A stretch of DNA of 64,000 nucleotides from Acidobacteriota bacterium (GCA_965209055.1 OZ242374.1:2848001-2912000); one strand, 5' to 3'; positions 47,398 to 64,000 are shown, counted from the first letter of the stretch. Notes: generated from the sequence alone by a model not told the origin. Translations and numbers: made by a program.

Positions 47398-48618
47398 ATG
47401 CAAAACTACATTGAGCGTTCTCTGGAACCGGTCCTCAGGAAGGCGTTCTCTCAGTTTCCCGCCGTCGTTCTGACCGGACCGCGCCAGTCCGGCAAGACAA
47501 CGATCCTGCAGAGGCTCTTCGGAGGCCGCTGCCGGTACGTCTCCCTGGAGCCTCCGGACGTTCAGGCGTCCGCGCTGCATGATCCGCGCAGTTTCTTGGA
47601 AACCTGCCGGCCGCCGGCGATTTTCGATGAGGTGCAGTACGTTCCCGGGCTGCTTCCATACATCAAGGAGAAGATCGATGCGAACAGGCATCGGACGGGG
47701 CAGTACCTGCTCACCGGCTCGCAGAACCTGTTGCTCATGGAGAAGGTGACCGAGTCGTTGGCGGGCCGCGCGGCCATGCTTCGGTTGTTGCCTCTCTCCA
47801 GACGTGAAGCCGAAGGACGGCCGCGGCTGCTTCTTCCCTGGGAACGTAGCGGGCACCCGGCTTCAATGCCGGCTTACGCATTTGGAGGACTCTGGAAAAA
47901 CTTTATTCGGGGCGGGTACCCGGAACTCGTGTCCCAGCCTGAAAGGGACGTGTCCCTCTGGCATTCCAGCTATATCCAGACCTATCTCGAGCGGGACGTT
48001 CGCACCCTCCGGCAGGTAGGCGACCTGACCCGGTATCAGAGTTTTGTCCGGGTTCTGGCGGCCAGAAGCGCTCAACTCTTGAACCTGACGGATGTCGCAC
48101 GAGACCTGGGCGTCGCCGTCAATACCGTCAAGGCCTGGCTCTCGGTGCTTGAAGCCAGCTACCAGGTCACGGTGCTGCGCCCCTACTTCGCCAACGTCGG
48201 GAAACGCCTCGTCAAGCGCCCGAAAGTGTATTTCACCGACACGGGGACACTCTGTCACCTCGTGGGTCTCAGGGACCCCGAACACGCCGCCTCGGGTCCC
48301 ATGGGCGGCGCTATCCTGGAGACGGCGGTGTTGTCCGAGATCGTCCGAACGCTGACGCATCGAGGGGTCGAGCCGCGGGTCTACTTTTGGAGGACGATGG
48401 CCGGGACGGAGATCGACTTCGTGATCGAGGCCGGGGGGAAGCTGGTGCCGTTGGAGGTGAAACTGTCCGCCACGCCGCGCCAACCAATGGCACGTGCCAT
48501 CAGTACTTTCCGGAGGGACCTGAAAGAGGCGGCGCGATCGGGATACCTCGTACATCCCGGTGATGTTCGCCTGCCTTTGGGCTCGGACGTGAACACATGC
48601 CCCTTCGCAGACCTGTAA
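47398..48618 (+). CDS. AAA_14 ATPase + DUF4143 (wHTH and PD-(D/E)xK-like C-terminus)
   Basis: GPRQSGKTT, IFDEVQ, LLTGSQ, GGYP, YLERDV, KRPKVYFTDTG, EIDFV..PLEVK. Confidence 0.93.
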   Translation: MQNYIERSLEPVLRKAFSQFPAVVLTGPRQSGKTTILQRLFGGRCRYVSLEPPDVQASALHDPRSFLETCRPPAIFDEVQYVPGLLPYIKEKIDANRHRTGQYLLTGSQNLLLMEKVTESLAGRAAMLRLLPLSRREAEGRPRLLLPWERSGHPASMPAYAFGGLWKNFIRGGYPELVSQPERDVSLWHSSYIQTYLERDVRTLRQVGDLTRYQSFVRVLAARSAQLLNLTDVARDLGVAVNTVKAWLSVLEASYQVTVLRPYFANVGKRLVKRPKVYFTDTGTLCHLVGLRDPEHAASGPMGGAILETAVLSEIVRTLTHRGVEPRVYFWRTMAGTEIDFVIEAGGKLVPLEVKLSATPRQPMARAISTFRRDLKEAARSGYLVHPGDVRLPLGSDVNTCPFADL

Positions 48619-48709
48619 CCACACTTCGAAAATCAAGTCGTGGTCATCACGAAATGAAGAAAGGAGCTTCCGCGCCGGTTAGAATGGCCGGGTTTCACGA
48701 GGCGATACC

Positions 48710-50779
48710 ATGTCGTTGAGGGCGTTTCTCCGAAACCTTCCCCGCGGTCACGTGGCCACCATCGCCGGGGTGGGCTGGCAGTCGGGAACCGAGGCCGCCA
48801 CCACCGATGCGGGTTGGCCCATGGGAGTGGTGCGCGACCCCCGGGGAGATCTCCTGGTGGTGGACTACCACGGCCAGCGGATCTGGAGGATTGACGGAGA
48901 CGGGATTCTCCACACCTTCGCCGGCGACGGAGTCCAGGGGTTTGCCGGAGATGGAGGACCTGCCAGGCACGCCCGATTCGATTCTCCCCATGACCTCTGG
49001 AGGGACCCGGAAGGGAATCTCTACCTGAGCGATCTGGGGAACTACCGGATCCGCCGCATCGATGCCGCCACCGGCGTCATCACGACCGTGGCCGGGTGCG
49101 GGGTCCGGGGCCGGGAAGGGGACGGAGGCCCGGCGACGGAGGCGCAACTGGACATCTCCTCCGGCGTGGCCAAGGACTCGCAGGGCAATCTCTACATCGC
49201 CGACGAACCCTCGTCCACGGTGCGGAAGGTGGATACCCAGGGCATCATCCGCCGTTACGCCGGCATCGGCGTCGGGGGATACAACGGCGACGGGATCCCG
49301 GCGTTGGAGGCGGCGCTCTATCACTGCGAGCACCTGGCGGTCGATTCCCGAGACAACCTCTACATCTGCGACAACAGCAACGACCGGATCCGCAAGGTGG
49401 ACCGCCGGGGCATTCTGACCACCGTGCTGGGCAACCCTTATCCCGTGGGCGTCGACTGCGGCTCCCTCCGATCCTCCATCGGCGACGGAGGCCCGGCCTC
49501 CGCCGCCTGCATCATCATGCCCGACGCCATCTTCATCGACGCCCGGGACAATCTGTACGTGGCCGAGAAATACGGTTTCCGCGTGCGCCGGGTGGACGCG
49601 GCCACGGGCATCGTCCAAACCGTGGTGGGCACCGGGATTCCCGGATTCGGCGAGGACGGTGATGCCGGTCCCGACAGCCGGATCAATTCCTGCGAGTCGG
49701 GTCTCTGGGCCGACCCCGACGGCACCACCTTCTGGGGCGATTGCAGCGGGCGGCTGAGAAGGGTGGACGGGAGGACCGGCGTCGTCTCCACGGTGCTGGG
49801 GGGCGCGTCGGTGAGAGACGGCGGTGTGGCGACGAGCGCCTTCATCACGGGTCCCAACGGCATCGCGGCGGGACCCGAAGGCACCGTTTATTTCGCCGAC
49901 CTCTGGGGCCAGCGGATCCGGGCCATCGACCTGGAGACCTGGCGGATCCGGACCGTCGCCGGGAACGGCGTGCGCTTCTACGGCGGGGACGGCGGGGCAG
50001 CCGTCGACGCCTATCTGGGCAACCCTCACGACGTGGCCCGGGGGCCGGAAGGCGAGATCTACATTGCCGACACCCGCTACAACCGAATCCGGAGGGTCGA
50101 TTCTTCGGGCTCGATTGCGACCCATGTGGGAACCGGCATGAGCTACGACTCGGGAGACGGAGGGCCCTCCGTCTCCGCCGCGGTGACGGCCCCCCTCTCT
50201 GTGGCCGCGTCGCCCCGGGGGGAGGTCTACCTCGGAGACTCGGTGGGGCGAATTCGCCGGGTCGATCCCGCCACCGGGGCCATCACCACCGTGGCCGGCA
50301 CCGGGAGGCCGGGATTCGGTGGAGACGGGGGACCGGCTCGCGAAGCTTCGATATCAGGACCGTCGGCCTTGGCCCTGGACCGGCAGGGGAACCTCTATTT
50401 CGCCGATACCGGAAACCACGCCGTCCGCCGCGTCGACGTCGACGGGCGAATGCGGACCGTGGTCGGGACGGGACGGCGGGGGCGGGCTCCCGACGGCGCC
50501 CGGGCGGATGGCGCTCCTCTCGACTCTCCACGTGGAGTGGCCGTGGACCGGGAGGGCAATCTCTACATCGCGGACACGGGCAACCACCGGGTGCTGGTCT
50601 CGACCCGGGAACGGGGCGTGCGCGTGCTGGCCGGCACCGGTGAAGGCGGAGAATCGGGAGACGGGGGTCCGGCCTCCCGCTGCCGTTTCAACCATCCGAC
50701 CGGCTTGGCGCTGGTAGAGGGATGCCTGCTGGTGAGCGATCACTACAACAACCGCATCCGTGCCATTAAACTGCAGTGA
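48710..50779 (+). CDS. NHL-repeat (teneurin-like) beta-propeller protein
   Basis: About 12 repeats of TVAGtG..G..GDGGPA..A.l..P.gla.D..GNLYIAD..N.RIRRVD; no clear signal peptide. Confidence 0.9.
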   Translation: MSLRAFLRNLPRGHVATIAGVGWQSGTEAATTDAGWPMGVVRDPRGDLLVVDYHGQRIWRIDGDGILHTFAGDGVQGFAGDGGPARHARFDSPHDLWRDPEGNLYLSDLGNYRIRRIDAATGVITTVAGCGVRGREGDGGPATEAQLDISSGVAKDSQGNLYIADEPSSTVRKVDTQGIIRRYAGIGVGGYNGDGIPALEAALYHCEHLAVDSRDNLYICDNSNDRIRKVDRRGILTTVLGNPYPVGVDCGSLRSSIGDGGPASAACIIMPDAIFIDARDNLYVAEKYGFRVRRVDAATGIVQTVVGTGIPGFGEDGDAGPDSRINSCESGLWADPDGTTFWGDCSGRLRRVDGRTGVVSTVLGGASVRDGGVATSAFITGPNGIAAGPEGTVYFADLWGQRIRAIDLETWRIRTVAGNGVRFYGGDGGAAVDAYLGNPHDVARGPEGEIYIADTRYNRIRRVDSSGSIATHVGTGMSYDSGDGGPSVSAAVTAPLSVAASPRGEVYLGDSVGRIRRVDPATGAITTVAGTGRPGFGGDGGPAREASISGPSALALDRQGNLYFADTGNHAVRRVDVDGRMRTVVGTGRRGRAPDGARADGAPLDSPRGVAVDREGNLYIADTGNHRVLVSTRERGVRVLAGTGEGGESGDGGPASRCRFNHPTGLALVEGCLLVSDHYNNRIRAIKLQ

Positions 50780-52590
50780 TGTCTGGAACCATGAATCTGA
50801 TCGGCCTTTTCAAATTACTGCTCCTGTCACTGATGCTCGGCGCATGCTCCATGGAGAGCGGCGGTCCGGGAGACACGCCGGCCCCACTTCCCGACGTGGC
50901 CACGGGGTCCGCGAGCGCCCTGGGCACGACGGCGATGACCGTCAACGGCAGCATCCAACCGTACGGGCGCTACTCCACCTACTACTTCGAATACGGCCTT
51001 TCGACCGAGTACGGATCGCGCACCGGGGAGACGCCGGTGCCGCCGAGGCTCGGCGCCTACTATCACGAGACCTGGGACCAGGGCCTCGGAGGATGGGCCA
51101 GCTGGCTGACGGCCGAGAGCATCGAGTCGGGAGGCGCCGAGGGCGGATTCGTCCGGTTCTCGGAGCCGAGCCGCCACGATCGCAATCACGACGACGGGAT
51201 CGGCACGCTCCATCTGACCAAGTACCTCTGGACCGGATCCCTGGGTGCGGGAGAGGACACGTCCCGCGCCTGGCTGGGTGGGGGCGATCCGGATCTCCGG
51301 GGGGCACGCGTGAGCCTCTGGGCCCGGGGAAACGATTGGCGGCCCAACGGCTCCGAAGTCTTGTGGTGGACGCAGAGCCAGAGCAACATCGAGCTCGGGC
51401 ACCAGCCGGGATGGCGCCGCGCCAACTGGGCCTACACGGGTTATACCCTCACCGATCAACTGCTCGACGGACGCTGGAACCTGGTCGATTACCGGTTGCT
51501 GAACGATTCCGCGCAATGGACCTATGGGGGGAACAATCCCACGCTCCAGGGAGAGAGCGCCGCCCGCTACGCCTACTGGTCCATCGATCAGGCCCAGGCC
51601 CACGTCAATTGCGACTTCTTTCACCTGGCGGCCACGGTGGACATCGACAATCCCCCTACGGGCTCTCTGGACTTCGACGACTTTCGGCTCGTCTACCGGA
51701 ATCATTCCCTGGTCTATCCGTCCAACGGCGGCAAGTTGATTCGCTGGCCGGGAGGGGCGCCCGACGCTCCGGCCCAGCTCACCGACGGATGGCGGCACGG
51801 ACCGGGCCGCACCTGGCGCAGCGGGAGCCGGCCGGATCAGCCTCAGGAGTTCCTCTTCGAACTGGACCGCGAGGTCACAGTGAAGACCATCCAGGTCCAT
51901 CAGAATCCGGAGTGGCCGGGTAAGGAGCTGGAGGTTTTGGCGTCCGAAGACGACCGGCAGTATGAGACGGTAGCGACCCTGACCCTGCCGGAAAAAGCCG
52001 AACACGGACCCAACTTCGCCTTCGCTCTGGAAACGGGCCTCGCGGCAAAGGCCCGCTATCTGAAGTTCCGGCTGCTCTCCGGCTACCGGGACGAGCACTG
52101 GGGACTGGGTGAGATCGAGGTCTTCGGCAGCGGCGCCCGGATGCTTCCGGATGACGGCCTCTATTACGTGAACACCGACCTGGAGGGTCTGACGCCGGGC
52201 GCGACGGTCCACTACCGGCTGGTGGCCTCCAGTGAGGAAGGAACCGTCTACGGCGAGGACCGCTCCTTCACCGTTCCCGATAGCCGCAAGCCCCGCGCCC
52301 GAACCGGGCAGGCTCTTCGCGTCGGAACCCGCGAGGTCAAGGTCCAGGGCCGGCTCAACGCCATGGGACTCCGTTCCCGGTATTACTTCGAATACGGGAA
52401 CAACCCGGGTTACGGCTCCAGGACGCCCGAGCAGTATGCCGGACAGCAGGTCAGCCCCCGCACGGTCTTTCAGGAGATCCGGGACCTGAAACCCGAGACC
52501 GGTTACCACTATCGTCTGGTGGTGGCCAACGACGAGGGCGTCTCCTACGGCGGCGACCGCAGCCTCCACACGGAGTCCGGCTCTCCGTAA
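50779..52590 (+). CDS. Lipoprotein with FN3-like repeats and discoidin/F5-8-like domain
   Basis: Lipobox LGAC; two YYFEYG and two L.P...YHYRLV motifs; ARYLKFR..GLGEIEVFG discoidin motif. Confidence 0.75.
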   Translation: MSGTMNLIGLFKLLLLSLMLGACSMESGGPGDTPAPLPDVATGSASALGTTAMTVNGSIQPYGRYSTYYFEYGLSTEYGSRTGETPVPPRLGAYYHETWDQGLGGWASWLTAESIESGGAEGGFVRFSEPSRHDRNHDDGIGTLHLTKYLWTGSLGAGEDTSRAWLGGGDPDLRGARVSLWARGNDWRPNGSEVLWWTQSQSNIELGHQPGWRRANWAYTGYTLTDQLLDGRWNLVDYRLLNDSAQWTYGGNNPTLQGESAARYAYWSIDQAQAHVNCDFFHLAATVDIDNPPTGSLDFDDFRLVYRNHSLVYPSNGGKLIRWPGGAPDAPAQLTDGWRHGPGRTWRSGSRPDQPQEFLFELDREVTVKTIQVHQNPEWPGKELEVLASEDDRQYETVATLTLPEKAEHGPNFAFALETGLAAKARYLKFRLLSGYRDEHWGLGEIEVFGSGARMLPDDGLYYVNTDLEGLTPGATVHYRLVASSEEGTVYGEDRSFTVPDSRKPRARTGQALRVGTREVKVQGRLNAMGLRSRYYFEYGNNPGYGSRTPEQYAGQQVSPRTVFQEIRDLKPETGYHYRLVVANDEGVSYGGDRSLHTESGSP

Positions 52591-52640
52591 TTCGCGGTCC
52601 CGTCCCGGCTCCTGCCGGGCGGCACGGCAAGGGAGCGGCC

Positions 52641-53951
52641 ATGAATCTGCACCAACTGCTTCAAAGGCGGCTCGAAAGCCGGGGGCCGGTGCGTGCGGGT
52701 CTCATCGGCGCCGGCAAGTTCGGTTCCATGTTCCTGTCCCAAGTGCCGTCGACCCGCGGTCTGGTGGTTCCGGTCATTGCGGATCTCGACCCGGACCGGG
52801 CGCGCCGGACCTGTCTGGCCGCAGGCTGGGACCGGGAGTTGGTGGACCGCACACGCATCGTCCGCGACGGCCTGGAGCTGGCCGCCGCCGATGACGTCGA
52901 TGTGGTGGTGGAAGCCACCGGACAGCCTCTGGCCGGACTCGCCCACGCCCGCAGCGCCATTCGGGCGGGGAAGCACGTCGTCATGGTCAATGTCGAGGCC
53001 GACGTGCTGGCCGGCCTGGAGCTGGCCCGGGAAGCGGCCGCCTCGGGAGTGGTCTATTCCATGGCTTACGGCGACCAGCCGGCTCTGATCTGCGAAATGG
53101 TGGACTGGGCTCGAGCCTGCGGTTTCCGGGTGGCCGCCGCCGGCAAAGGGACCCGGTATCTGCCCTCCTACCACGCGTCGACTCCGGAGACGGTCTGGGA
53201 CCATTACGGAATCACCGCCGAGGCGGCCCGGGCCGCCCGGATGAATCCCCGGATGTTCAATTCGTTCCTGGACGGGACCAAGTCGGCCATCGAGATGGCG
53301 GCGGTGGCCAATGCCACGGGGCTGACTCCGGCTCCCGGCGGGCTGACCTTTCCGCCCTGTGGAGTGGACGAGCTCGCCCAGGCGCTCTGTCCCCGGGAAG
53401 CCGGCGGCCGACTGCACCACCGGGGCCAGGTGGAGGTGGTCTCATCTCTGAACCGGGACGGCAGCGCCGTGGAAAGGGATTTGCGCTGGGGAGTCTACGT
53501 CGTGGTCGAGGCGCCCAACGACTACACCGCCGCTTGCTTCTCGCAATACGGCCTGAGTACCAATGAGTCGGGTGGTTATGCCGCCCACTACAAGCCCTTT
53601 CACCTGATCGGGCTGGAGCTGGGCATCTCCATTCTCTCCGCCGTGTTGCGCGGCGAGGCCACCGGCTGCCCGACCCGTTTCGCGGGGGACGTGGTGGCGA
53701 TAGCCAAGCGGGACCTCCGGCAGGGGGAGGTCCTGGACGGCGAGGGCGGTTACACCGTGTGGGGAAGGCTCATGACCGCCGCCGGCAGCGTAGCGTCGCA
53801 CGGCCTTCCCATCGGACTCGCCCACGGCGTCCGGTTGCGCCGCGATGTTCCGGCGGGCCGGTTCCTGAGCTGGTCCGATGTGGAGATCGATCCGGATCTG
53901 GAGGCAGTGCGGCTGCGCCGGGCCATGGAGCAGACCCTGGCGGAGACTTGA
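52641..53951 (+). CDS. Homoserine-dehydrogenase-like NAD(P)-dependent oxidoreductase with C-terminal SAF domain
   Basis: GAGKFG, VVVEATG, VNVEAD, GDQP, SFLDGTKSAIEM, AKRDL..GEVLDGEGGY, LPIGLA. Confidence 0.92.
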   Translation: MNLHQLLQRRLESRGPVRAGLIGAGKFGSMFLSQVPSTRGLVVPVIADLDPDRARRTCLAAGWDRELVDRTRIVRDGLELAAADDVDVVVEATGQPLAGLAHARSAIRAGKHVVMVNVEADVLAGLELAREAAASGVVYSMAYGDQPALICEMVDWARACGFRVAAAGKGTRYLPSYHASTPETVWDHYGITAEAARAARMNPRMFNSFLDGTKSAIEMAAVANATGLTPAPGGLTFPPCGVDELAQALCPREAGGRLHHRGQVEVVSSLNRDGSAVERDLRWGVYVVVEAPNDYTAACFSQYGLSTNESGGYAAHYKPFHLIGLELGISILSAVLRGEATGCPTRFAGDVVAIAKRDLRQGEVLDGEGGYTVWGRLMTAAGSVASHGLPIGLAHGVRLRRDVPAGRFLSWSDVEIDPDLEAVRLRRAMEQTLAET

Positions 53952-54157
53952 GTGGACCGACAACCGATCCTGGTTGTCGTCGCTACGGGATTGGAGTGTT
54001 TACCTTGATCGGCAACACGCATATTCCCGGCTTGATCACGCCGGCTCGATATCGGTGTGTATGAAATCCCCTCCCTACCGGGTACCGGTACAACACCGGC
54101 AATGGGATGACCATGGTCGCCTCCGACAGATTCACGATATTGGGAATTGTCGATAAA

Positions 54158-54219
54158 TGGACAAATAGGAGTAGTATTTTACTATTGATAGTGAAAACGT
54201 CTCTCGGTATCATCACGGA
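54158..54219 (+). promoter_or_regulatory. AT-rich promoter/operator region; leaderless promoter for HTH gene
   Basis: TTGATA (54185) - 17 bp - TATCAT (54208) places +1 at about the A of ATG 54220; palindromes TAGTA-ttt-TACTA (54172-54184) and ACTAT-tg-ATAGT (54181-54192). Confidence 0.6.
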
Positions 54220-54654
54220 ATGCAGATTTCGGAGATCACAGCCGTCATTCGCCGGGAATTGGAACGCCGCGGGACCAACGCCTACCGGGCAGCCGTGGAC
54301 GCGGGGCTGCCCCAGAACGCCATCCGATCGGTCCTCCGCGGCCGGGAACCCGGAAGCGAACGCCTGGCAGAAATCTGCCGGGCGCTGGAACTTGAATTTT
54401 ACGTCGGGCCGCCGAGAGGGCATCGCCAGGAGACGATCCAGGAGGCGGACGGGACCCCGGAATTGCCGGCCGGGGAACCTCAGTGGGTGGAGCGGCTCCA
54501 TGCCGGGTTGCAGGAATTGAAAGCCCAGTTGGCTGTTGCGCACGAGGACATCAAGGCGTTGCGCCGGCAGATCGGGCCGCAACAGGAGCCGCCGCCGGAA
54601 GCGCTGGATTGGCCGGCCGTTGCTGGACACACCGGCTCCCGCTCCACCGATTAG
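54220..54654 (+). CDS. XRE/phage-repressor-like HTH protein with C-terminal coiled coil
   Basis: NAYRAAVDAGLPQNAIRSVLRGREPGSERLAEICRALELEFY helix-turn-helix; heptad LHAGLQELKAQLAVAHEDIKALRRQI; no S24 peptidase domain. Confidence 0.8.
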   Translation: MQISEITAVIRRELERRGTNAYRAAVDAGLPQNAIRSVLRGREPGSERLAEICRALELEFYVGPPRGHRQETIQEADGTPELPAGEPQWVERLHAGLQELKAQLAVAHEDIKALRRQIGPQQEPPPEALDWPAVAGHTGSRSTD

Positions 54655-54674
54655 TTAATAGATTGGGAAATGGA

Positions 54675-55904
54675 ATGACCAACGCCGAACTTGTCAGACG
54701 AATCCGGCTCGGCGAGGACTCGACTCTGGAGTTCAAGCGTGTAGTAGTGGCTGGCGGCCGCGTATCGGAACCGAAGCGCAATCCCATGGCAGACGAGTTG
54801 GCCGCCCTGGCCAACGCCAGAGGCGGCACCGTGGTCCTGGGTGTAGACGACGAAACCCAGGAGATTCTTGGTATTCCGCTCCAGGATCTGGATGCCGTCG
54901 AAGGCTGGGCGCAGGAAATCTGCAATGACTCCGTGAAGCCGGCGCTCAATGCCGATATCCGAAAGTTGGAGTTGCCGGCCCGGAATGGTCAGCTGGTTCC
55001 GGTCGTTCGCCTGGACATTCCCCGTAGCCTGTTCGTACACAAGAGTCCGGGCGGATATTTCCGCCGGATCGGCAGTTCGAAGCGGGAAATGGCTCCGGAG
55101 GTTCTGGCTCGACTCTTTCAGGAACGTAGCCAGACTCGAATGATCCGGTTCGACGAGTCCATTGTGCCGGGGACCGCGACGGGCGATCTGGACTATGCGC
55201 TGACGCGCCGATTCCTTCGGGGAGAACCCGATGAAGACGGCGTCACAGAGACCGCGGCGCGAAAGCTTCGCCTCGTGGCCGACGACGATGAGGGGCGGGC
55301 GCGGATCACGCTCGCCGGTGTCCTGCTGTGCACGCGCGAACCACGAACGTGGTTGCCTCACGCATACGTGCAAGCGGTCAGCTACGCCGGGGAGCGAACC
55401 GACATCGACTATCAGACTGACGCCCGGGATATCGGCGGGTCGCTCGACGTTCAGGTCGCCGAGGCGCTGCATTTCGTGCGCCGGAACATGCTCGTGCGTG
55501 CAAGCAAAGCGACCGCGCGTGTGGATCGTCCGCAGTTCAGCGATCGGGCGGTGTTCGAGGCGTTGGTTAACGCGGTGGCGCACCGGGACTACTCGGTGGC
55601 GGGCGCGCGCGTGCGGCTGCACCTCTTCGGGGATCGCCTTGAACTCCATGTCCCGGGCGCTCTGGCGAACACTCTCACTCCTGACAGCCTGCATTTGCGC
55701 CAAGCCAGCCGGAACGAACTGATCGTCTCACTGCTGGCGCGCTGTCCGGCGCCTACCGGCCTTGGCCGTGTGAATCTAATGGACCGGCGGGGAGACGGCG
55801 TGCCCATCATCATGCAAGAATGCGAGAAGCTGTCCGGTCGCCTCCCGGAGTACAGGCTGATAGACGACAGTGAGCTGCAGCTCGTGATCTGGGCAGCCCC
55901 GTAG
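54675..55904 (+). CDS. Schlafen/AlbA_2 domain + HATPase_c_4 (RecG C-terminal-like) protein
   Basis: GEDSTLEFKR, ALANARGGTVVLGVDD, YFRRIGSSKR, EALVNAVAHRDYS, DRLELHVPG, RNELI, MDRRGDGV. Confidence 0.9.
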   Translation: MTNAELVRRIRLGEDSTLEFKRVVVAGGRVSEPKRNPMADELAALANARGGTVVLGVDDETQEILGIPLQDLDAVEGWAQEICNDSVKPALNADIRKLELPARNGQLVPVVRLDIPRSLFVHKSPGGYFRRIGSSKREMAPEVLARLFQERSQTRMIRFDESIVPGTATGDLDYALTRRFLRGEPDEDGVTETAARKLRLVADDDEGRARITLAGVLLCTREPRTWLPHAYVQAVSYAGERTDIDYQTDARDIGGSLDVQVAEALHFVRRNMLVRASKATARVDRPQFSDRAVFEALVNAVAHRDYSVAGARVRLHLFGDRLELHVPGALANTLTPDSLHLRQASRNELIVSLLARCPAPTGLGRVNLMDRRGDGVPIIMQECEKLSGRLPEYRLIDDSELQLVIWAAP

Positions 55905-55924
55905 CCGGCTGGACGGGATCCGCT

Positions 55925-56605
55925 ATGCCTGTGAAACGGGTCGTGTGCCTGGCGAACTCTCGGAAGCTGGCGGAACGGTGCGTCGCCGGCCGGGAGTGGA
56001 TCGGGGGTCGCAGAGCCGGCGCCTGGGTTCGACCGGTGAGCGATCGCGAGAGTCAGGGGGTGTCCGAGTACGAGCGGCAGTACGTTGACGGCAGCGATCC
56101 GCAGGTTTTGGACATTATCGATATTCCGGTGCTGGAACATCGCCCGCAGGACCATCAGACTGAGAACTGGTTGCTCGATCCCAAGTGCTACTGGGAGAAA
56201 GCGGGCCGCCTTACGCCGATCGATTTACCAACGTTCGTAGATACTGCTGCCCCACTCTGGGTCGACGGATACAGTACGTTCAAGGGCCGGAACGACAAGA
56301 TCCCGGTCTCGGCGATCGCTCCAGTTACCGATTCGTTACGACTTATCCGTATTGACCGTCTGCAGCTTGTCGTGTGCCGGCCCGGCGAGGCCTTCGGAAA
56401 CAACAAGCGGCGGGTTCAGGGTCGTTTCCGGCACGCGGAGACGCAATACGCGCTCTGGGTCACCGATCCCAGGTACGAGAGAAAGTATCTTTCGAAATTG
56501 GACGGCACCTATGAACTCGGAGAATGCTACATCACGATCAGTCTGGAAGAGCCGTACCAGGACTCCTGCTACAAGCTGGTCGCGACCATTTTCGAGGTTG
56601 ATTGA
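55925..56605 (+). CDS. Dual OB-fold domain protein
   Basis: VCLANSRKLAERCVAGRE, WVRPVS, HQTENW, SLRLI, YALWVTDP, ITISLEEPY..CYKLVATI. Confidence 0.8.
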   Translation: MPVKRVVCLANSRKLAERCVAGREWIGGRRAGAWVRPVSDRESQGVSEYERQYVDGSDPQVLDIIDIPVLEHRPQDHQTENWLLDPKCYWEKAGRLTPIDLPTFVDTAAPLWVDGYSTFKGRNDKIPVSAIAPVTDSLRLIRIDRLQLVVCRPGEAFGNNKRRVQGRFRHAETQYALWVTDPRYERKYLSKLDGTYELGECYITISLEEPYQDSCYKLVATIFEVD

Positions 56606-56615
56606 CAGCAGTCCG

Positions 56616-57254
56616 ATGCACCAGATTCACGGCAAGGTCTTCACCATCGGCCATTCCAACCACGAGATCGAGGGCTTCGTCGAGCTATTGCGGCAACACC
56701 GGATAGATGCCCTGGCTGACGTCCGCTCGGCACCGTACAGCCGCTTCAATCCGCAATTCAATCGGGAACCGTTCGCCGCCGCCCTCAAAGAAAAAGGGTT
56801 CCGATACGTATATTTCGGACGAGAGTTGGGCGGCCGGTCCGACAACTTCGAGTGTTACGACGAAGAGGGGCGTATCGTTTTCGATCGAGTCGCCGCAACC
56901 GGGAAGTTCAAACGTGGAATTGCACGCGTCGTTGACGGAGCCGCCAGACACCGCATAGCACTTATGTGCGCGGAGAAAGAGCCGCTCGAATGCCACCGGA
57001 CGCTGCTCGTCGCCTGCAAACTCGACAATCGGAGCGTCGAGGTCGACCACATTCATGCTGACGGCAGCCTGGAGTCGCACGACCAAGCGATGACTCGTCT
57101 GATCAAACTCGTACTTCCGCGTGAGGGCCCTCTGATTCGCCAGACTGAACCTCCCAGGGATGTGATGATCGCCGAGGCCGTTGAACGCCAAGTGAGGCGC
57201 ATTGGCTTCAGGGACAAGAGTCTGGCCGCCACTTTCGCGGAGTCAATGCAATGA
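56616..57254 (+). CDS. DUF488 family protein (long form)
   Basis: VFTIGHSN, LADVRSAPYSR, ELGGR, ALMCAEKEPLECHR. Confidence 0.9.
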   Translation: MHQIHGKVFTIGHSNHEIEGFVELLRQHRIDALADVRSAPYSRFNPQFNREPFAAALKEKGFRYVYFGRELGGRSDNFECYDEEGRIVFDRVAATGKFKRGIARVVDGAARHRIALMCAEKEPLECHRTLLVACKLDNRSVEVDHIHADGSLESHDQAMTRLIKLVLPREGPLIRQTEPPRDVMIAEAVERQVRRIGFRDKSLAATFAESMQ

Positions 57255-57688
57255 AGTTGTCCACCATCGGATTCACAAGAAAACCCGCCAAGCGTTTCTT
57301 TCACCTGTTGCGCAAGTCGGGTGCCCGGCGGATCGTAGACGTGCGGATCCACAATACCTCCCAACTCGCCGGCTTCGCCAAGAAAAACGACCTGGCCTAC
57401 TTCCTCGGCGAGATTTGCGGGATGGACTAAGTCCATCTGCCCAGCCTCGCCCCCACCAGGGAGCTGTTGGGTGCGTATCGAAAAAAGACCATTCGCTGGG
57501 GCACGTTTGAGAGGCGTTTCATCGCACTGATGCGCCAGCGGCGAATCGAAGCGACGACGCCGAAGGACGTGCTGAGCGACGGTTGCCTCCTGTGCAGCGA
57601 GGACCGACCGCACCATTGCCATCGCCGGCTGGTGGCGGAGTACCTGAACCAACATTGGGGCGGAATCCAGATCGCCCACTTGCGATAG
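57251..57688 (+). pseudogene. DUF488 family protein (short form), interrupted by in-frame TAA at 57428-57430
   Basis: MKLSTIGFTRK..DVRIHNTSQLAGFAKKNDLAYFLGEICGMD*VHLPSLAPT...LLCSEDRPHHCHRRLVAEYL; same frame on both sides of the stop; ATGA overlap with upstream DUF488. Confidence 0.88.
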
Positions 57689-57716
57689 CCGGAGGGCGAG
57701 GAATTTCTTCCCCTTC

Positions 57717-58631
57717 TCACGCCGGCTTCGGGCCGGCGGCGCTCCTTCTCAGGTGAAGGCACCAGGTGATGGGGGCCAGAGGCGGAAGATCGGTTCGTCC
57801 TTCCAGATACTTGCGGTGGTGATCCGCCGGCGAGTCGTTGCCGACGATCTCCCAAAGGTCGCGCGGGTTCAGGACGGCGCCCACGCGGGCCGGGTCGAAG
57901 CGCGAAATCATGGGTTCGCCCCGTTTCTCCACGAACGCCATCAGCCGGGAAAAGAGATCGCGGTCTTCCGGCGGCACGCACTCGGCCGCGATCAAATAAT
58001 CGAAGACGATTTCCGACCCCGAACTTGCGATCTCCGCCAACCGATCCAGATTCTCGAGAATGGAGGCCCGGGTGAGGTAGTAGGTGACTCCCATCCAGTT
58101 GAAGAAGGAGCGTGCGCCGAGATCGAAGCCGGCGGCAGTCAGCGCGCTTCGGAGGTCGCCTCTCTCGAAGTCGAAGGGGACCAGACGCAAACGAGCGGGG
58201 ATCTCCAGGTTCGCGGCGGCCAGCCGTTCCACCTTCAGGCGAATCATCTCCGCCCGGTCGACTTCGAATACGGTCAGATCCAGGTCCGGCCGGCGGAAGG
58301 CGAAGGAATCGAAGCCGGAGCCCAGGATCACGTACTGGGTCGCGCCGTTTTCGGCCGCCGTCTCGAGCGTTTCTTCGGCGAACCGGGCGCGGGTCAACTG
58401 CTGGATGCTGATGGGCACCAGTTTGTTCATGACGATCTTCGCCAGCACCCAGTCGAGGAGACGCGACGCGACGATTCGTCGCCACCGGTTTCCCAACAGG
58501 TGGATGGCGAACGGATCTTCGAAGATATGGGGTTTCCGGTGCCGAAGCAGGTGCCGGGCGCGGCTCACCGCCGCGAGTTCGGCGGTGCGGCTGGCGCCGG
58601 TGCGGTCATGTTCGTCGGTTGGTGCGGCCAC
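57717..58631 (-). CDS. SAM-dependent methyltransferase, LCM / Rv0726c-like family
   Basis: SRTA..AAVSRA, FEDPFA, RARFAE, QYVILGSGFDS, VFEVD, WMGVTYYL. Confidence 0.92.
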   Translation of the reverse strand: MAAPTDEHDRTGASRTAELAAVSRARHLLRHRKPHIFEDPFAIHLLGNRWRRIVASRLLDWVLAKIVMNKLVPISIQQLTRARFAEETLETAAENGATQYVILGSGFDSFAFRRPDLDLTVFEVDRAEMIRLKVERLAAANLEIPARLRLVPFDFERGDLRSALTAAGFDLGARSFFNWMGVTYYLTRASILENLDRLAEIASSGSEIVFDYLIAAECVPPEDRDLFSRLMAFVEKRGEPMISRFDPARVGAVLNPRDLWEIVGNDSPADHHRKYLEGRTDLPPLAPITWCLHLRRSAAGPKPA

Positions 58632-58873
58632 GGCTTCCTTTCGTCCGGCTCGGCCTGGATCGGTGCAGCGCCATTGTATCCTGGTTGAGCTGGACCGGCA
58701 CATCGTTGGGCTTGGCAGAATGCGGGAATCTCACGGCGTGAAGCGGCGTCGAAGGACGGGTTACAACCAGCCGTCGTTGCAGTAGACTTCTAAACCACAG
58801 TCCGCTGGCTGCGGAGCCGGACCGTCCGAACATGACGCCGGGGGTCCCCGGATTCCGGGAAGGCAAGGGAATT

Positions 58874-61800
58874 ATGCCGTTCTTTCGACGTTTCGCGTGG
58901 GTGTCTTTGCTGGTCCTCTGGAGTTCTGCGGCGGCGACCCCCGCCGCCGGGACCGGCGGCGATCTGTTCCGGGAGCTGGCGGACGAATACCGGGACCGTA
59001 TCCGGCCTCTGACGCAACAGTACTGCCAGTCGTGCCACTCCACCGAGAAGCAGGTGGGCGAGCTGGACCTGGAGCAGTTCGCGACCCTGGCCGACGTGAG
59101 GGGCGGCACCAAATCCTGGCTCAAAGTCATCGAGATGCTGGACAACGGCGAGATGCCCCCCGGGTTCGCCAAGCAGCCGGCGCCCGGACAGAAGCAGCAT
59201 CTCAGGGACTGGGTGGACCGTTACCTCCAGGCCGAGTCATTGGCCAACGCCGGTGATCCGGGTCCCGTCGTCCTGCGGCGGCTCAACAACGCCGAGTACA
59301 CCTACACCGTCCGCGACCTGACCGGCATCGATCTGGACCCGGCCCGGGAGTTCCCCACCGACAGCGCGGCCGGCGAGGGGTTCACCAACACCGGGAATGC
59401 GCTGGTCATGTCGCCGGCGCTCCTGGGCAAGTACCTGGACGCCGGCAAAGGGATCGCCAGTCACGCGGTGCTGGTGCCGGACGGGTTCCGTTTCTCGCCC
59501 CATAGCACACGGCGCGACTGGACCGACGAGGTGCTGGGCCGGATCCGCGGTCTCTACGGAGAGTACGTGGAGACGGCCGACTTCGGAGTCGGTTCGGCCG
59601 TCGGCAACCTCGCCGTCCACAGCGACACCCGCATCGGATCGGCCGGCCGGTTGCCTCTGGAGAAATACCTGTCCGCCACTCTCTCGGAACGGGACGCCCT
59701 GCGAAGCGGCCGGAAGAGCGTCCGGACCGTAGCCCGCGAACGTGGTCTGAGCGCCAAGTATCTGGATCTGCTTTGGACTCATCTCGCGGACCCTAAGACC
59801 ACTCTCCTGCTGGACCATCTCCGGGCGGCTTGGCAGACTGCCGGGTTGGAGGACGTCCCGTCGCTGGCGAGCCGGATCAGGGATTGGCAGCGCGGCCTCT
59901 GGACCTTCGGCCCCGTGGGTCTCATCGGACGGAAAGGGGGCCCCTCCCGCTGGATGGAGCCGGTCGATCCTCTGGTCACTCAAAAACGGGTCTGTTTTTC
60001 GGTGCCGCAATTCGCCGACGGCCGCAAGCCCGAGGACCTGGTCTTTTCGCTGGTGGTGGGGGATGCCGGTGACGGGAACGATCACGATTACGTGGTTTGG
60101 CAACGGCCGCGCCTGGCGGCGCACGGGCGGCCCGACATTCTGCTGCGGGACGTGAAAAGGCTGGCCACGTCCTTGGATGGAGGGGCCGCGGACGACACCT
60201 CCGAATGGGGGCTGGACCCGGGACTCTTCGGCAGGCATCCGGACGGGCGGGCCGTCGACGCCGACTCGCTCTGTGTCCAGGCGCCCTCGGTGATTCGGAT
60301 CCGCATTCCGGGCCGTCTCGCTGCCGGCTACGACTTCGTCACCACCGCCGTGCTGGAGGAGCAGACCGGACAAAAGGGCAGCGTTCAGGTCGACCTGGCG
60401 CCCGGCGCCGCGGCGGCAGATACCCGTCTCCTTCCCAGCCAGGTCATGGTCACCTTCTCGAGGGTCACGCAGGTCTTCTCGGAGAGCCGGGCCGTCTCCT
60501 TCATGAGGCCCATCCTCATCGCTTCCGAGAGTCCCATACGGGCCAGCATGGAAGCGGCGTTCGACGAACACCGGAAACTGTTTCCGGCCACCCTCTGCTA
60601 CAACCAGATCGTACCCGTGGACGAGGTTCTCACCATCAACCTCTTCTACCGGGAGGACGACCACCTGGCACGGCTCATGCTGGAACCGGAGGAGGAAGCG
60701 CGGCTCGACCGGCTCTGGGACGAGCTGCACTACGTCAGCCACAGCGCGTTCCAGCGGGTGTTGGCCCTGGACCTGCTGGTGGAGGCGTTCCAGGGGAACG
60801 GGCTGGAGGACCGGTCTCAGTACGAGGCCGTGCTTCCGCTGCTCCGTCTCTACGACCGGGATGCCGCCGACTTCCGGAAGCGTCTCCTCCGGGACGAGCC
60901 GGTCCAGCTCGACGCCCTGGTCGATTTTGCCCCCCGGGTCTACCGGCGTCCCCTGAGCGGCGATGAGAAGGACCGGTTGCGCGGCCTCTATCGCCGGCTT
61001 CGCCACGAAGAGATGGACCACGAGGAGGCGTTCCGGTTGACGCTGGCCCGCATGCTGGTCTCGGCGCCCTTCCTGTACCGGTTGGAAGAGGCGCCCGCCG
61101 GTCCCGGCGGTCCGGTCTCCGATTGGGAGTTGGCCAACCGGCTGAGCTATTTCCTCTGGTCGTCGCTTCCGGATGGGGAACTCCGATCTCTGGCTGCCGC
61201 CGGGCGCCTGCAAGACCCCGAGGTCCTGTCCCAACAGGCCCGGCGCCTGCTCAAAAACCCGCGAGTGCGGCGCCTGGCCACCGAGTTCGCCTGCCAGTGG
61301 CTGCACATCCACGAATTCGACACCCTGGACGAGAAGAGCGAGAAACACTTTCCCGAGTTCGGCGATCTGAGGACGGACATGTACGAGGAGTCGATCCGCT
61401 TCTTCACCGACCTGTTTCGGCGCGACGCCTCGCTGCTGACTCTGCTGGATTCGGATCACACCTTCCTGAACCAGCGGCTGGCGCGCTTCTACGGAGTCGA
61501 GGGCGTGGAGGGGGAGAACTGGCGCCGGGTGGAAGGGGTCCGTTCGCAGGGCCGCGGCGGAATCCTGGGCTTCGCCACGACCCTGGCCCGGCAGTCCGGC
61601 GCCTCGCGGACCAGTCCGATTCTGCGGGGCAACTGGGTCAGCGAGGTCCTCTTGGGGGAGAAGCTTCCCCGGCCGCCCCAAGACGTGCCCCAGTTGCCCC
61701 CCGATGAGATCGCCACCGACGGTCTGACCGTGCGGGAGCTCGTGGCGCGGCACAGCAGCGACCCCCAGTGTTCCGGCTGTCACCTGAAGATCGATCCCTT

Positions 61801-62179
61801 CGGATTCGCCCTGGAGGGGTATGACGCCATCGGGCGCCGCCGCCAGCACGATCTGGGAGGGCGCGTCATCGATACTCGGACCACCCTGCCGGACGGGACC
61901 GAGATCGACGGCTTGTCCGGACTCAGGGACTACCTGGTCCGGAAACGGCGGGACGCCATTTTCGGCCAGTTCTACCGCAAGCTTCTGGGTTACGCCGTGG
62001 GCCGCGAGGTCCAACTCTCGGATCAGCCTCTCCTGAACGAAATACGGGACCGCATGGCGGAGAACGATTACCGTTTCTCGGTCGCCGTCGACATGATCGT
62101 CCGGAGCCGGCAGTTCCGGGAGATCCGGGGCCGGGAGCTGCAACTGGCCCGGTCGGCGGGAGCGGAAAACGTGGAGTGA
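58874..62179 (+). CDS. Planctomycete-type cytochrome c / DUF1587-1595-1592-1588-1585 protein
   Basis: Signal peptide; CQSCH and CSGCH heme motifs; LRRLNNAEYTYTVRDL, ELANRLSYFLWSSLPD, RTSPILRGNWV, KLLGYAVGR. Confidence 0.92.
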   Translation: MPFFRRFAWVSLLVLWSSAAATPAAGTGGDLFRELADEYRDRIRPLTQQYCQSCHSTEKQVGELDLEQFATLADVRGGTKSWLKVIEMLDNGEMPPGFAKQPAPGQKQHLRDWVDRYLQAESLANAGDPGPVVLRRLNNAEYTYTVRDLTGIDLDPAREFPTDSAAGEGFTNTGNALVMSPALLGKYLDAGKGIASHAVLVPDGFRFSPHSTRRDWTDEVLGRIRGLYGEYVETADFGVGSAVGNLAVHSDTRIGSAGRLPLEKYLSATLSERDALRSGRKSVRTVARERGLSAKYLDLLWTHLADPKTTLLLDHLRAAWQTAGLEDVPSLASRIRDWQRGLWTFGPVGLIGRKGGPSRWMEPVDPLVTQKRVCFSVPQFADGRKPEDLVFSLVVGDAGDGNDHDYVVWQRPRLAAHGRPDILLRDVKRLATSLDGGAADDTSEWGLDPGLFGRHPDGRAVDADSLCVQAPSVIRIRIPGRLAAGYDFVTTAVLEEQTGQKGSVQVDLAPGAAAADTRLLPSQVMVTFSRVTQVFSESRAVSFMRPILIASESPIRASMEAAFDEHRKLFPATLCYNQIVPVDEVLTINLFYREDDHLARLMLEPEEEARLDRLWDELHYVSHSAFQRVLALDLLVEAFQGNGLEDRSQYEAVLPLLRLYDRDAADFRKRLLRDEPVQLDALVDFAPRVYRRPLSGDEKDRLRGLYRRLRHEEMDHEEAFRLTLARMLVSAPFLYRLEEAPAGPGGPVSDWELANRLSYFLWSSLPDGELRSLAAAGRLQDPEVLSQQARRLLKNPRVRRLATEFACQWLHIHEFDTLDEKSEKHFPEFGDLRTDMYEESIRFFTDLFRRDASLLTLLDSDHTFLNQRLARFYGVEGVEGENWRRVEGVRSQGRGGILGFATTLARQSGASRTSPILRGNWVSEVLLGEKLPRPPQDVPQLPPDEIATDGLTVRELVARHSSDPQCSGCHLKIDPFGFALEGYDAIGRRRQHDLGGRVIDTRTTLPDGTEIDGLSGLRDYLVRKRRDAIFGQFYRKLLGYAVGREVQLSDQPLLNEIRDRMAENDYRFSVAVDMIVRSRQFREIRGRELQLARSAGAENVE

Positions 62180-62321
62180 GGGGGACTTGGAGCACCGGCC
62201 GGAAGGTGAACTCCGCTCGGCGGAATGAGCCGCAGGTCGAATTTCGTGGCGGCGATATTTCGCGGGTTCCTGTGCTAAAATCGCGGCCAAGACCCTTGGA
62301 CCTGGACCAGCGAGGCGCATC

Positions 62322-63626
62322 ATGAAGATTCAGCAACATTCTCGTCGGACTTTCCTGCGTGGGGTCGGCGTCACCATGGCGTTGCCCTGGATGGAGTCGC
62401 TGCCCGTTTGGGGCGCCGCAACCAAGGCGGCCGTCAACGGCGGTAACCAGGCGCCGCTGCGCTTCGCCGTCCTGTTCTCCGGCAACGGATTTCACACCAA
62501 GCATTGGTGGGCCGAGGGAGAAGGATCCGAAATGCGGCTGGGCCGGGTGCTGGAGCCGCTGAACGATTTCCGCGAGAAGCTGACCTTCGTCCGGGGCCTC
62601 TACAACGAAGAAGCCCTCAAGGGGAACATCCACAGTTCCCAGACCGGCAACCTCCTTTCGGGAGCGCCATTGGAGTCGGGAGGGGGAATCCGCTCCGGGA
62701 CCAGCGTGGATCAGGTCATCGCCCAGCGCTATGGACGGTCGACGAAGGTATCGAGCCTGGTCCTGGGTTGCGAGCGGTCCAATCCGGGAATCCACAAGAA
62801 CTACTCCATGCTCTACAGCTCCCATATCTCCTGGAGCTCGCCCACGGCGCCCACGCCTCTGGAACTCTATCCGGCCCTGGCCTTCGACCGCTTGTTCAAG
62901 GACGAAGTCGAGCGCGGAGACCGGAGCGTGCTGGATGCCGTTCTGGAAGAGGCCCACTCCTTCCGGCGGTCCATCAGTTCGCGGGACCAGTACAAGTTGG
63001 ACGAGTACCTCAATTCGGTGCGGGAGGTGGAGCAGCGCATCGAGCGGTCCGGCAACAAGGGCGAGTTGCAGGGTTGGCGGCCGACCCTGGACAAGCCCAA
63101 CGTGCCGCGTCCTCCCGACGGTATTCCTCAGGATCTGGAAGAGCACATGCGGCTCATGTGCGACATCGTGGTACTGGGATTCCAGACCGACGCCACCCGC
63201 GTCTGCACCCTCAAGCTCAACAACGACCACAGCTACCTCTTGTTTCGCCACCTTGGCGTCGACGTGGGCCACCACGAGCTGTCTCACCGCAACAACGAAA
63301 AATGGCTGCGGGTGAATCAATTCTTCCTGGAGCAGTACGGCTACATCGCCCGGAAGCTGGACCAGATCCAGGAGGGAGAGCGGACGGCGCTGGACAACTC
63401 GGTGCTCATGTACTGCTCCAGCATGCTCACGGGCCGGCACGACGCCACTCAGTTGCCGGTGGTGCTCCTGGGCGGAGGTGGCGGCCAGATTCAGGGGGGA
63501 CGGATCCTGGACTACCGGGAGCGGCCCAACCGGAAGATGTGCAGCCTCTACTTGTCGTTGCTCGACAAGTTCGACGTCCACCTGGAGCACTTCGGCGACT
63601 CGGACCAGCGTCTGACGGAGATCTGA
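62322..63626 (+). CDS. DUF1552 (HXXSHH) protein with Tat signal
   Basis: SRRTFLRG, ALPWMESL, SVDQV, FQTDATRV, HHELSH, LDNS. Confidence 0.93.
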   Translation: MKIQQHSRRTFLRGVGVTMALPWMESLPVWGAATKAAVNGGNQAPLRFAVLFSGNGFHTKHWWAEGEGSEMRLGRVLEPLNDFREKLTFVRGLYNEEALKGNIHSSQTGNLLSGAPLESGGGIRSGTSVDQVIAQRYGRSTKVSSLVLGCERSNPGIHKNYSMLYSSHISWSSPTAPTPLELYPALAFDRLFKDEVERGDRSVLDAVLEEAHSFRRSISSRDQYKLDEYLNSVREVEQRIERSGNKGELQGWRPTLDKPNVPRPPDGIPQDLEEHMRLMCDIVVLGFQTDATRVCTLKLNNDHSYLLFRHLGVDVGHHELSHRNNEKWLRVNQFFLEQYGYIARKLDQIQEGERTALDNSVLMYCSSMLTGRHDATQLPVVLLGGGGGQIQGGRILDYRERPNRKMCSLYLSLLDKFDVHLEHFGDSDQRLTEI

Positions 63627-63628
63627 TC

Positions 63629-63799
63629 CGTCGGGTTCTCTACGGTCGGATTCCAGCCTTCGAAAAGAAGTCGGAAGCCCGTCTGGATCTGATCGACAAT
63701 CGACTGGGCGCAGTGGAGCAAGGACTGGCAAATCTCGAAGGCCTGCTGGAAGTGATACGCGATGCCGTGTTCGAGAGACGCCGCACCGCGAAGTCGTAA
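63629..63799 (+). pseudogene. Start-less fragment of a small coiled-coil protein
   Basis: FEKKSEARLDLIDNRLGAVEQGLANLEGLLEVIRDAVFERRRTAKS* shows heptad periodicity; no own start codon or RBS after the DUF1552 stop. Confidence 0.4.
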
Positions 63800-64000
63800 C
63801 CATCCCGGGTGACTTCGGTCGACGATCGATCCATCACCGGGTGGATGTCCGGAAGTCCCAGGGAAACCCGCAAAGGGACCTCTCTTCCGGGTCCCACTCC
63901 TCTCAGACCGCCGCTTTCAGGATCTCGGCGATTCGCCGGCCCACGATCTTCGCCTCTCTCGGCTGCAGGGTCCACACCAGGATTTCCAGTTCCTCTTTCT

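Follow-up and report, generated by a model that had tools for sequence, protein, structure and literature searches.

A decaying DuOB-DUF488-Schlafen gene block of an Acidobacteriota genome as a candidate mobile anti-phage cassette

What is the function of a compact block of five co-oriented genes that lies between unrelated metabolic genes of an Acidobacteriota bacterium, and do these genes belong together? The block lies at 54220-57688 of a 64,000-nucleotide stretch of DNA (GCA_965209055.1, OZ242374.1:2848001-2912000; hereafter the window) and codes for a helix-turn-helix (HTH) protein, a Schlafen/AlbA_2 protein with an ATPase domain, a protein with two OB folds (DuOB) and two DUF488 proteins (B and C). 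A preliminary description, made from the sequence alone, had taken it for a single regulated operon acting against phages or damaged nucleic acids. We interpret it as a decaying, horizontally mobile cassette of the anti-phage type, composed of a DuOB-B-C core to which the Schlafen gene was added in one subclade and an autoregulated HTH gene in a single genus, with a probability that we put at about 0.5. The core trio and the Schlafen protein are each of known kinds, and judging from the searchable literature their operonic pairing appears to be new.

The trio is the conserved core of the block. DuOB, B and C match all three genes of PDC-M45, a candidate system of PADLOC (PADLOC-DB v2.0.0), and the trio is already catalogued in PADLOC and Pfam, as a computational candidate only. 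In related metagenome and IMG/VR loci gathered with a 26-row alignment, B and C both follow DuOB in 52 of the 56 loci that extend at least 1.2 kb downstream of it; the four others have B only (one), C only (two) or neither (one). Divergent relatives within the same phylum hold the trio in the order B-C-DuOB. Moreover, three of ten DuOB representatives of unusual length that were checked are DuOB-DUF488 fusions (the other seven are DuOB only), which supports the idea that the two proteins work together. The OB-DUF488 trio can therefore be retained as a conserved unit of the conflict-system type, as had been proposed, given the PDC-M45 match and its recurrence in these loci.

The DuOB family is large: at E <= 1e-3 it counts 2,631 cluster representatives, and 497 of them at E <= 1e-30. 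It is found in 11 of the 401 sampled genomes of the phylum (the present genome, with one copy, included); 22 plasmid records carry it, and none of 50,697 deposited phage records does. Six predicted viral contigs of IMG/VR (L151-L156) carry DuOB (40-52% identity), and both DUF488 genes accompany it in five. Several loci have defence genes as neighbors. For example, an HTH-ImmA/IrrE pair precedes the trio on a plasmid of Agrobacterium, where the trio adjoins a cyclic-oligonucleotide-based antiphage signaling system (CBASS) operon, and a 25.5-kb IncFII plasmid of Klebsiella (L055, NZ_CP056428.1) holds a DuOB-DUF488-DUF4326 variant (4992-6655), whose third gene belongs to the sister family of DUF488, beside a NotI-family restriction-modification (R-M) system and a RelE/HTH pair. 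Small plasmids of Citrobacter, Salmonella and Leclercia also hold DuOB matches, with size and identity as in the Klebsiella plasmid. In L021 and L037 the trio has type IIG R-M (E 0) as a neighbor, in L017 it has HmaC (E 0), and no defence match was found among the large neighbors of L007 and L019. Across 174 flanking proteins from 18 non-redundant loci, predicted with a crude open reading frame (ORF) caller based on G + C content at third codon positions, the PADLOC matches include type IIG R-M, DISARM-like helicases and methylases, a prokaryotic Argonaute (pAgo) with a SIR2 partner, HmaC, AbiLi and several PDC candidates.

DuOB (226 aa) matches PF22557 (E 6.5e-69) and the PADLOC model PDC-M45A (PDLC04653, E 4e-89, residues 3-224 on profile positions 4-224 of 230). 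In an alignment of 126 DuOB sequences C8, W34, R36, Q78, N81, W90, T180 and D181 are nearly invariant. The AlphaFold2 (AF2) model of the protein (pLDDT 97.3) has two beta-barrels with weak likeness to CTC1/CST, RPA, SSB, PriB, HIN domains and baculovirus LEF-3, and DuOB is presumed to be a nucleic-acid binder. C19 and E80 are invariant across the 126 sequences, which exceeds what a plain single-stranded DNA (ssDNA) binding protein would need and suggests a specific pocket or a catalytic site rather than generic ssDNA binding.

DUF488-B (212 aa) matches PF04343 (E 4.6e-25) and PDC-M45B (PDLC04657, E 2.4e-74), and its residues C118, E120, C126, H127 and R128 are invariant in 28 sequences. Its AF2 model (pLDDT 87.8) shows a Rossmann-like core and a helical C-terminal tail; behind a best match to a putative phosphatase come dual-specificity phosphatases and tetrapyrrole methylases (E 0.03-0.06). 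Burroughs and Aravind reportedly placed DUF488 in the rhodanese-phosphatase superfamily in 2023, and the phosphatase-like fold matches agree weakly with this placement. Judging from the model, B is predicted to be a Cys-based Rossmann-like enzyme. The two halves of DUF488-C, which is interrupted by a stop codon, match DUF488 (E 1e-5 and 5.9e-12) and PDC-M45C (PDLC04658, E 5.7e-27 and 1e-35), and the 3' half also matches DUF488-N3a (E 1.8e-12). The C-x-E-x5-C-H-R residues of C are invariant in 23 sequences, and the 3' fragment of the window has them too. Sequence searches found no match for B, C or DuOB among solved structures, and no NCBIfam model exists for any gene of the block.

The Schlafen protein (409 aa) consists of a nuclease domain (SLFN_AlbA_2, PF04326, E 2.4e-15) and a GHKL-type ATPase domain (HATPase_c_4, PF13749, E 1.6e-15, residues 310-404) and nothing else, a Pfam search having revealed neither a fused sensor nor a C-terminal HTH. 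An uncharacterised bacterial protein (PDB 3lmm) matches it over both domains, and the PADLOC models for pAgo and Aga match it over the SLFN-GHKL part. Residues E14, E19 and D59 align with E205, E210 and D248 of rat SLFN13 (PDB 5yd0), which we take to be the catalytic residues of that enzyme. E14, E19, K21, D59, E295, N299, D370, G373 and G375 are invariant in all 15 orthologues, and E295, N299 and D370-x-x-G373-x-G375 presumably form the ATP-binding boxes. The domain assignments of the preliminary description agree with Pfam for all five genes, the HTH_3 match being below the cut-off, and the motifs to which it had drawn attention hold up: C-x-E-x5-C-H-R is found in both DUF488 proteins, and the E..EFK residues of the AlbA_2 domain (E14-x4-E19-F-K21) are those invariant in the orthologues.

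The latter residues form an intact Ex4(E/D)xK motif, as defined for prokaryotic Schlafen nucleases (pSlfn) by Perez Taboada et al. (Nat Microbiol 2026, PMC13056530), and the association of SLFN with PF13749 has been named 'Schlatpase' by Kuzmenko et al. (bioRxiv 10.64898/2026.05.29.728809). By sequence, the gene of the window is a stand-alone Schlatpase with a conserved catalytic motif, and a predicted nuclease. Fusions of Slfn with the histidine-kinase clan (GHKL) are the commonest pSlfn class (34%; PMC13056530). ATP-driven tetramers of an Argonaute-fused Schlatpase (RzAgo) cut tRNA, and the Schlatpase module is swapped among pAgo, NACHT and type I R-M operons (bioRxiv 10.64898/2026.05.29.728809); tRNA cleavage or oligomerisation has been demonstrated for RzAgo and RorSlfn5 (PMC13056530; bioRxiv 10.64898/2026.05.29.728809). 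By analogy with these experiments on other Schlafen proteins, the effector role attributed earlier to the Schlafen gene is plausible. The genome harbors five further SLFN_AlbA_2 matches (at 2782271, 2816188, 3702979, 1854434 and 347057), two of which lie in 819-aa open frames with identical scores and may represent a duplicated element. A strain that is about 99% identical, from sequencing run X6, carries an N84K replacement (54926) in Schlatpase at a position invariant in the 15 orthologues.

Is the Schlatpase a stable companion of the trio? A scan with the DuOB of the window gave 25 genome loci, one of which (L026) ends at a contig edge and was excluded; Schlatpase (70-92% identity, some copies partial) lies directly upstream of DuOB in 18 of the 24 near relatives left, and six lack it. 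A DuOB tree was built from 29 rows, with L022, L023, L024 and L026 dropped for a partial or split DuOB. The 17 linked rows require two changes on this tree, and none of 500 shuffles gave a number as low. They all fall in one group of 20 rows (support 83/90, not starred), which also contains three nested rows without Schlatpase and spans Acidobacteriota, Binatota, Rhodothermota and Thermodesulfobacteriota. This pattern indicates that Schlatpase was probably gained once and that the four genes then moved jointly between phyla. In addition, a Schlatpase search of the 401 genomes found all four matches of at least 70% identity at DuOB loci. The next matches (66% and 56%) overlap the end of a gene coding for a Ppl-like ATPase of 906-921 aa (Table 1), which may be a second operonic partner of this Schlatpase lineage. 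According to the title of its reference, Ppl senses 3'-hydroxyl DNA overhangs (PMC13223576). DUF488 and Schlafen were not found together in the searchable literature, nor were the pairing of Schlatpase with the trio, its spread across phyla or the Ppl-like pairing, supplements being outside the scope of that search; the main texts of PMC13056530 and bioRxiv 10.64898/2026.05.29.728809 contain no mention of DUF488 or DuOB.

The copy in the window is no longer whole. An in-frame TAA interrupts DUF488-C after 59 codons and is followed by 85 more, at a position that is Tyr in all intact orthologues of two alignments (19/19 and 23/23). A 14-kb contig of run X6, which belongs to another study, spans the block with 40 differences, none of them at the stop, and over 57343-57534, stop included, there is no difference in a contig of run X5, which comes from a third study; the window itself probably derives from run X1. 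Since the same sequence occurs in contigs from other studies, the stop is not an assembly error; those holders of the sequence that bear a label are labelled as sponge metagenome. In the comparison of the window with L002, the dN/dS of C is 0.20, like that of the intact Schlatpase, DuOB and B genes and the upstream oxidoreductase gene (0.17-0.29), which suggests that the nonsense mutation is recent. A TAC/TAT-to-TAA change has knocked out DUF488-C, so that the trio is probably inactive in this genome; its Schlatpase, DuOB and DUF488-B genes are still intact. The five-gene set of the preliminary description, which gave a passing hint at a stop to be repaired, is therefore not intact in the window, where the first two genes of PDC-M45 are present and adjacent and the third is split by the TAA.

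Syntenic loci of the same genus (Table 1) form a series that runs from the intact cassette, through the nonsense mutation and in-frame deletions, to loci with HTH and one DUF488 gene only, and they provide a natural example of the dismantling of a cassette from which a single enzyme gene is retained. Deletion from a five-gene ancestor is favored, not proven, over insertion into an HTH-B locus, because L024 keeps fragments of Schlatpase, DuOB and C around an intact B and because L052 and L053 have, just ahead of B, about 25 nt that are similar to the 3' end of DuOB. The B tree does not settle the direction: L054 is sister to the cassette Bs at 80/72, L052 is unplaced, and L053 was left out. The string 'ENWLL' in the spacer between HTH and B of L054 was considered as a DuOB remnant and rejected (profile 3.3 bits), and DNA alignment shows this spacer to be homologous to the HTH-Schlatpase spacer of L022, not to DuOB. 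A low-depth contig of run X5 joins 54579 to 56641, skipping 2,061 bases, which is roughly the HTH-to-B form of L052-L054; the sample probably also contains a relative with this short form, a weak indication with 24 bases on the shorter side of the joint.

Decay extends beyond the genus. Eight of the 19 Schlatpase-linked loci, the window included, are undamaged and the other 11 carry one or more broken or deleted genes, compared with about three damaged loci among 13 with the trio only. This contrast is only suggestive, as the loci are related and come from metagenome assemblies in which single frameshifts could be errors and large deletions are unlikely to be.

The HTH protein (144 aa) is probably of the Xre type; its C-terminal half is coiled-coil-like, and its tail varies in length. 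It matches HTH_3 of Pfam at E 2.6e-4 (21.4 bits, the cut-off being 23 bits) and a transcriptional repressor of PHROG at E 2.7e-4. The gene is intact in seven of the eight genus loci, its N-terminal ~65 aa being nearly identical; the X6 strain has a stop in place of W131 (54612), in the variable tail. By tblastn, homologs occur in syntenic loci of the genus only (L002, L003, L022 and L052-L054) and in none of 86 metagenome and viral loci. Likewise, no HTH family was found with Pfam in ten ORFs lying upstream of Schlatpase or DuOB at loci outside the genus: four of these have DUF6036/DUF2204, DUF6615, DUF3644 and TraB/PrgY/GumN, respectively, and six have no family.

Ahead of the HTH gene lies a promoter-like region in which a 10-bp near-palindrome occurs twice (Table 1). 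The consensus is CTATCAATAG followed by its complement CTATTGATAG; in the window the upstream copy is degenerate, and the downstream copy (54182-54191) overlaps the -35 hexamer. CTATTGATAG is invariant in all seven genus loci, and the upstream copy is kept in most of them. Only two sigma-70-like sites were found in 53900-57800 (TTGATA-17-TATCAT and TGGACA-16-TACTAT; 0.7 +/- 0.7 in shuffles), both ahead of HTH. Conserved palindromes over the -35 element of the sole promoter fit an autoregulated repressor of the Xre type, and the HTH protein is probably the autoregulator of its own promoter through this predicted operator. The regulation by the HTH gene envisaged earlier is thus in keeping with a region that is the only predicted promoter of the block. 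The five genes do not, however, make up one conserved system: by tblastn the HTH gene is restricted to the genus, and the Schlafen gene is linked to the trio in one DuOB subclade only.

With an HTH gene 20 bp upstream of a nuclease gene on the same strand, and promoter palindromes suggestive of autoregulation, the first two genes might be viewed as a toxin-antitoxin-like pair with the DUF488 genes as bystanders. We consider this highly improbable, since the HTH gene persists with DUF488-B in three genus genomes that lack Schlatpase, at least 15 cassette loci outside the genus have Schlatpase without a homolog of the HTH of the window, and none of the six ORFs that precede a Schlatpase gene, among the ten scanned, is an HTH. 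The many loci without HTH already imply that Schlatpase is not toxic in its absence.

Several observations weigh against a coupled defence cassette, first of all those that bear on its coherence. Schlatpase is absent upstream of DuOB at all seven further loci of the same phylum and at all six IMG/VR loci, and among the 50 metagenome loci that extend at least 1.3 kb upstream it is present at two (L071 and L073); its 3' part also occurs on a short contig (L075). As most trios (48/50, 7/7 and 6/6 in these sets) have no Schlatpase, the trio does not need it. Furthermore, Schlatpase is intact at seven loci where DUF488 genes are broken, and truncated at two (L004 and L011) where the trio is intact; that each half decays alone is as compatible with two independent units as with a coupled one. 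Schlatpase, as a self-sufficient single-gene system, and PDC-M45 may accordingly be two defence units without functional coupling that were transferred together as a mini defence island, an explanation that we regard as possible, if rather unlikely. It would account for the many trios without Schlatpase and the separate decay of the halves, and it agrees with the stand-alone state as the commonest form of Schlatpase (bioRxiv 10.64898/2026.05.29.728809), with close Schlatpase relatives adjoining a different, Ppl-like system and with the six SLFN_AlbA_2 matches of this genome. However, the two halves are tightly adjacent on one strand (20 bp in the window), this adjacency has persisted through transfers that involve four phyla (the DuOB tree needs one gain and one loss), and the sole promoter-like region precedes the whole block. 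Moreover, the four closest Schlatpase matches are all at DuOB loci, and the Schlatpase relatives overlap their Ppl-like gene by a few bases, in an operon-like manner.

Other observations bear on the defence role itself. No defence gene adjoins the block, so that the suggested link with defence islands holds for some relatives (those next to type IIG R-M, CBASS, Hma or NotI R-M genes) but not for the window's own site, and neither experiments on PDC-M45 nor mentions of it were found in the searchable literature. In the pSlfn study, two Schlafen fusions only, with DUF262 and with an Ig-like domain, protected E. coli from phages, and the histidine-kinase-type fusions tested gave no protection (PMC13056530). 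The fold matches of DuOB, all of them OB nucleic-acid binders, are weak (best Foldseek E 4.5e-4, best VIA Z 6.0), as is the best Foldseek match of DUF488-B (3gxh, a DUF442 putative phosphatase, E 8e-3, TM 0.36/0.46). Finally, DUF488-B is intact in all eight genus loci with a dN/dS of 0.14-0.29 (15 pairs from six loci, without L052 and L053), and this purifying selection after the loss of its partners hints at a function of its own.

The persistence of B even without DuOB, C and Schlatpase would suit a cellular module for the healing or repair of DNA or RNA ends, with no role in defence and an incidental Schlafen gene, as would the location of the genus locus among ordinary genes and the frequency of DUF488 as a single gene, present in seven of 14 control genomes, E. 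coli included. We nevertheless judge such a module improbable: the distribution is patchy (11/401 genomes), near-identical cassettes occur across phyla, the trio is carried by plasmids and neighbors R-M, CBASS or Hma genes, decay is frequent (11 of the 19 Schlatpase-linked loci), and PADLOC lists the trio as a defence candidate. Patchy occurrence, mobility and proneness to decay are typical traits of an accessory conflict system and not of a repair gene. Together with the defence-gene neighbors, the plasmid carriage and the nature of Schlatpase, they make a defence role, on balance, the likelier one.

In the anti-phage cassette that we favor, DuOB would bind invading ssDNA or DNA ends and recruit both DUF488 proteins, Cys enzymes of the rhodanese-phosphatase type, and this pair would act on nucleic-acid termini by removing or transferring a phosphate- or sugar-linked group. 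The downstream effector of the four-gene variant would be Schlatpase, which after ATP-driven oligomerisation would cut tRNA and halt translation, resulting in abortive infection. The HTH protein would set the level of expression by binding the palindromes over the -35 element. More tentatively, the trio could be a sensor and processor of foreign DNA ends or ssDNA that licenses the Schlatpase tRNase in trans, the same Schlatpase lineage also plugging into Ppl as a portable abortive-infection effector of unrelated systems; if this were true, the higher decay of Schlatpase-linked cassettes (11/19 as opposed to about 3/13) would reflect a carrying cost.

No activity is known for the DuOB-DUF488 trio or for any enzyme of the large and widespread DUF488 family. 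The four-gene variant ties this trio to an effector of understood chemistry, which provides a read-out and makes the trigger of the trio testable, and it would extend the idea of a movable effector proposed for pAgo, NACHT and type I R-M systems.

The layout of the locus is given in Table 1. The ORF call agrees with the five co-oriented genes described earlier and with their spacings of 20, 20, 10 and -4 bp, and the recurrence of an identical order across many other genomes shows that this arrangement is not due to chance. A longer ORF of the Schlafen gene is possible from GTG 54483 and would overlap HTH; the ATG was chosen as it agrees with the N-termini of the orthologues. The neighbors are, as stated before, unrelated metabolic genes: upstream a DRL/SAF NAD-binding oxidoreductase and downstream a convergent LCM-type methyltransferase and, beyond it, a PSD/PSCyt protein. 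In the window 268 bp separate the oxidoreductase and HTH genes; the distance is 700-900 bp, with small minus-strand ORFs, in two genus relatives (L003:5272-6212 and L022:5235-5917). The lower G + C content that had been noted for the region applies to both ends of the block (0.57-0.59 at 53750-54499 and 56000-57499), the middle being at 0.61-0.67 and the flanks at 0.67-0.70 upstream and 0.63-0.69 downstream. There are no tRNA genes in 48000-64000, no noteworthy flanking repeats and no Rfam family at the block as marks of a mobile element, and no terminator-like sites (2.9 expected); none of the 21 runs listed is an RNA dataset.

Table 1. Features of the gene block in the window, state of the syntenic loci of the genus, and Ppl-like pairs of related Schlatpases
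Feature	Position	Strand	Description	Basis
Promoter-like region	54150..54213	+	Two 10-bp near-palindrome copies, sigma-70-like sites	
HTH gene	54220-54654	+		ORF call
Schlafen/AlbA_2 + HATPase_c_4 gene	54675 (ATG)-55904	+		ORF call and orthologue N-termini
DuOB gene	55925-56605	+		ORF call
DUF488 'B' gene	56616 (ATG)-57254	+		ORF call
DUF488 'C' gene	57251-57688	+	DUF488-N3a type, pseudogene; in-frame TAA 57428-57430	ORF call
L002			All five genes intact	Syntenic genus locus
Window			Stop in C	Syntenic genus locus
L003			Internal deletion of C	Syntenic genus locus
L022			DuOB split; in-frame deletion in C	Syntenic genus locus
L024			B alone whole; fragments of Schlatpase, DuOB and C	Syntenic genus locus
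L052, L053, L054			HTH and B only	Syntenic genus loci
Ppl-like + Schlatpase pair (G332)	L069:3481-7430		Full-length Ppl match	PADLOC Ppl, 3.5e-122
Ppl-like + Schlatpase pair (G377)	L070:2935-6958		Full-length Ppl match	PADLOC Ppl, 4.1e-149

How does the block compare with known systems? It is closest to PDC-M45, all three genes of which are matched over their full length, in the order and with the tight spacing seen in 52 of the 56 sampled loci; it differs in the nonsense codon of C and in the preceding Schlatpase and HTH genes, which have no PDC-M45 model. With the DuOB/DUF488/DUF4326 systems it shares matches to PF22557 and PF22751 of Pfam, and both DUF488 proteins keep the Cys motif; in the relative on the Klebsiella plasmid, DUF4326 replaces the second DUF488. 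According to PMC13056530, pSlfn proteins have PF04326, the Ex4(E/D)xK motif and the Slfn + GHKL architecture in common with the protein of the window; the protective ones carry fused sensors (DUF262, Ig-like), whereas the latter has none and sits in an operon. The likeness to Schlatpases of the SLFN-pAgo kind extends to the same two Pfam domains and to the match with the pAgo model, but the partner there is an Argonaute, and in the window the partners are DuOB and DUF488, with no Argonaute. Finally, the nearest relatives of the Schlatpase outside the cassette directly follow full-length Ppl-like genes, which suggests a similar add-on arrangement, although Ppl (PDLC02208), an ATPase of about 900 aa, has no relation to DuOB or DUF488.

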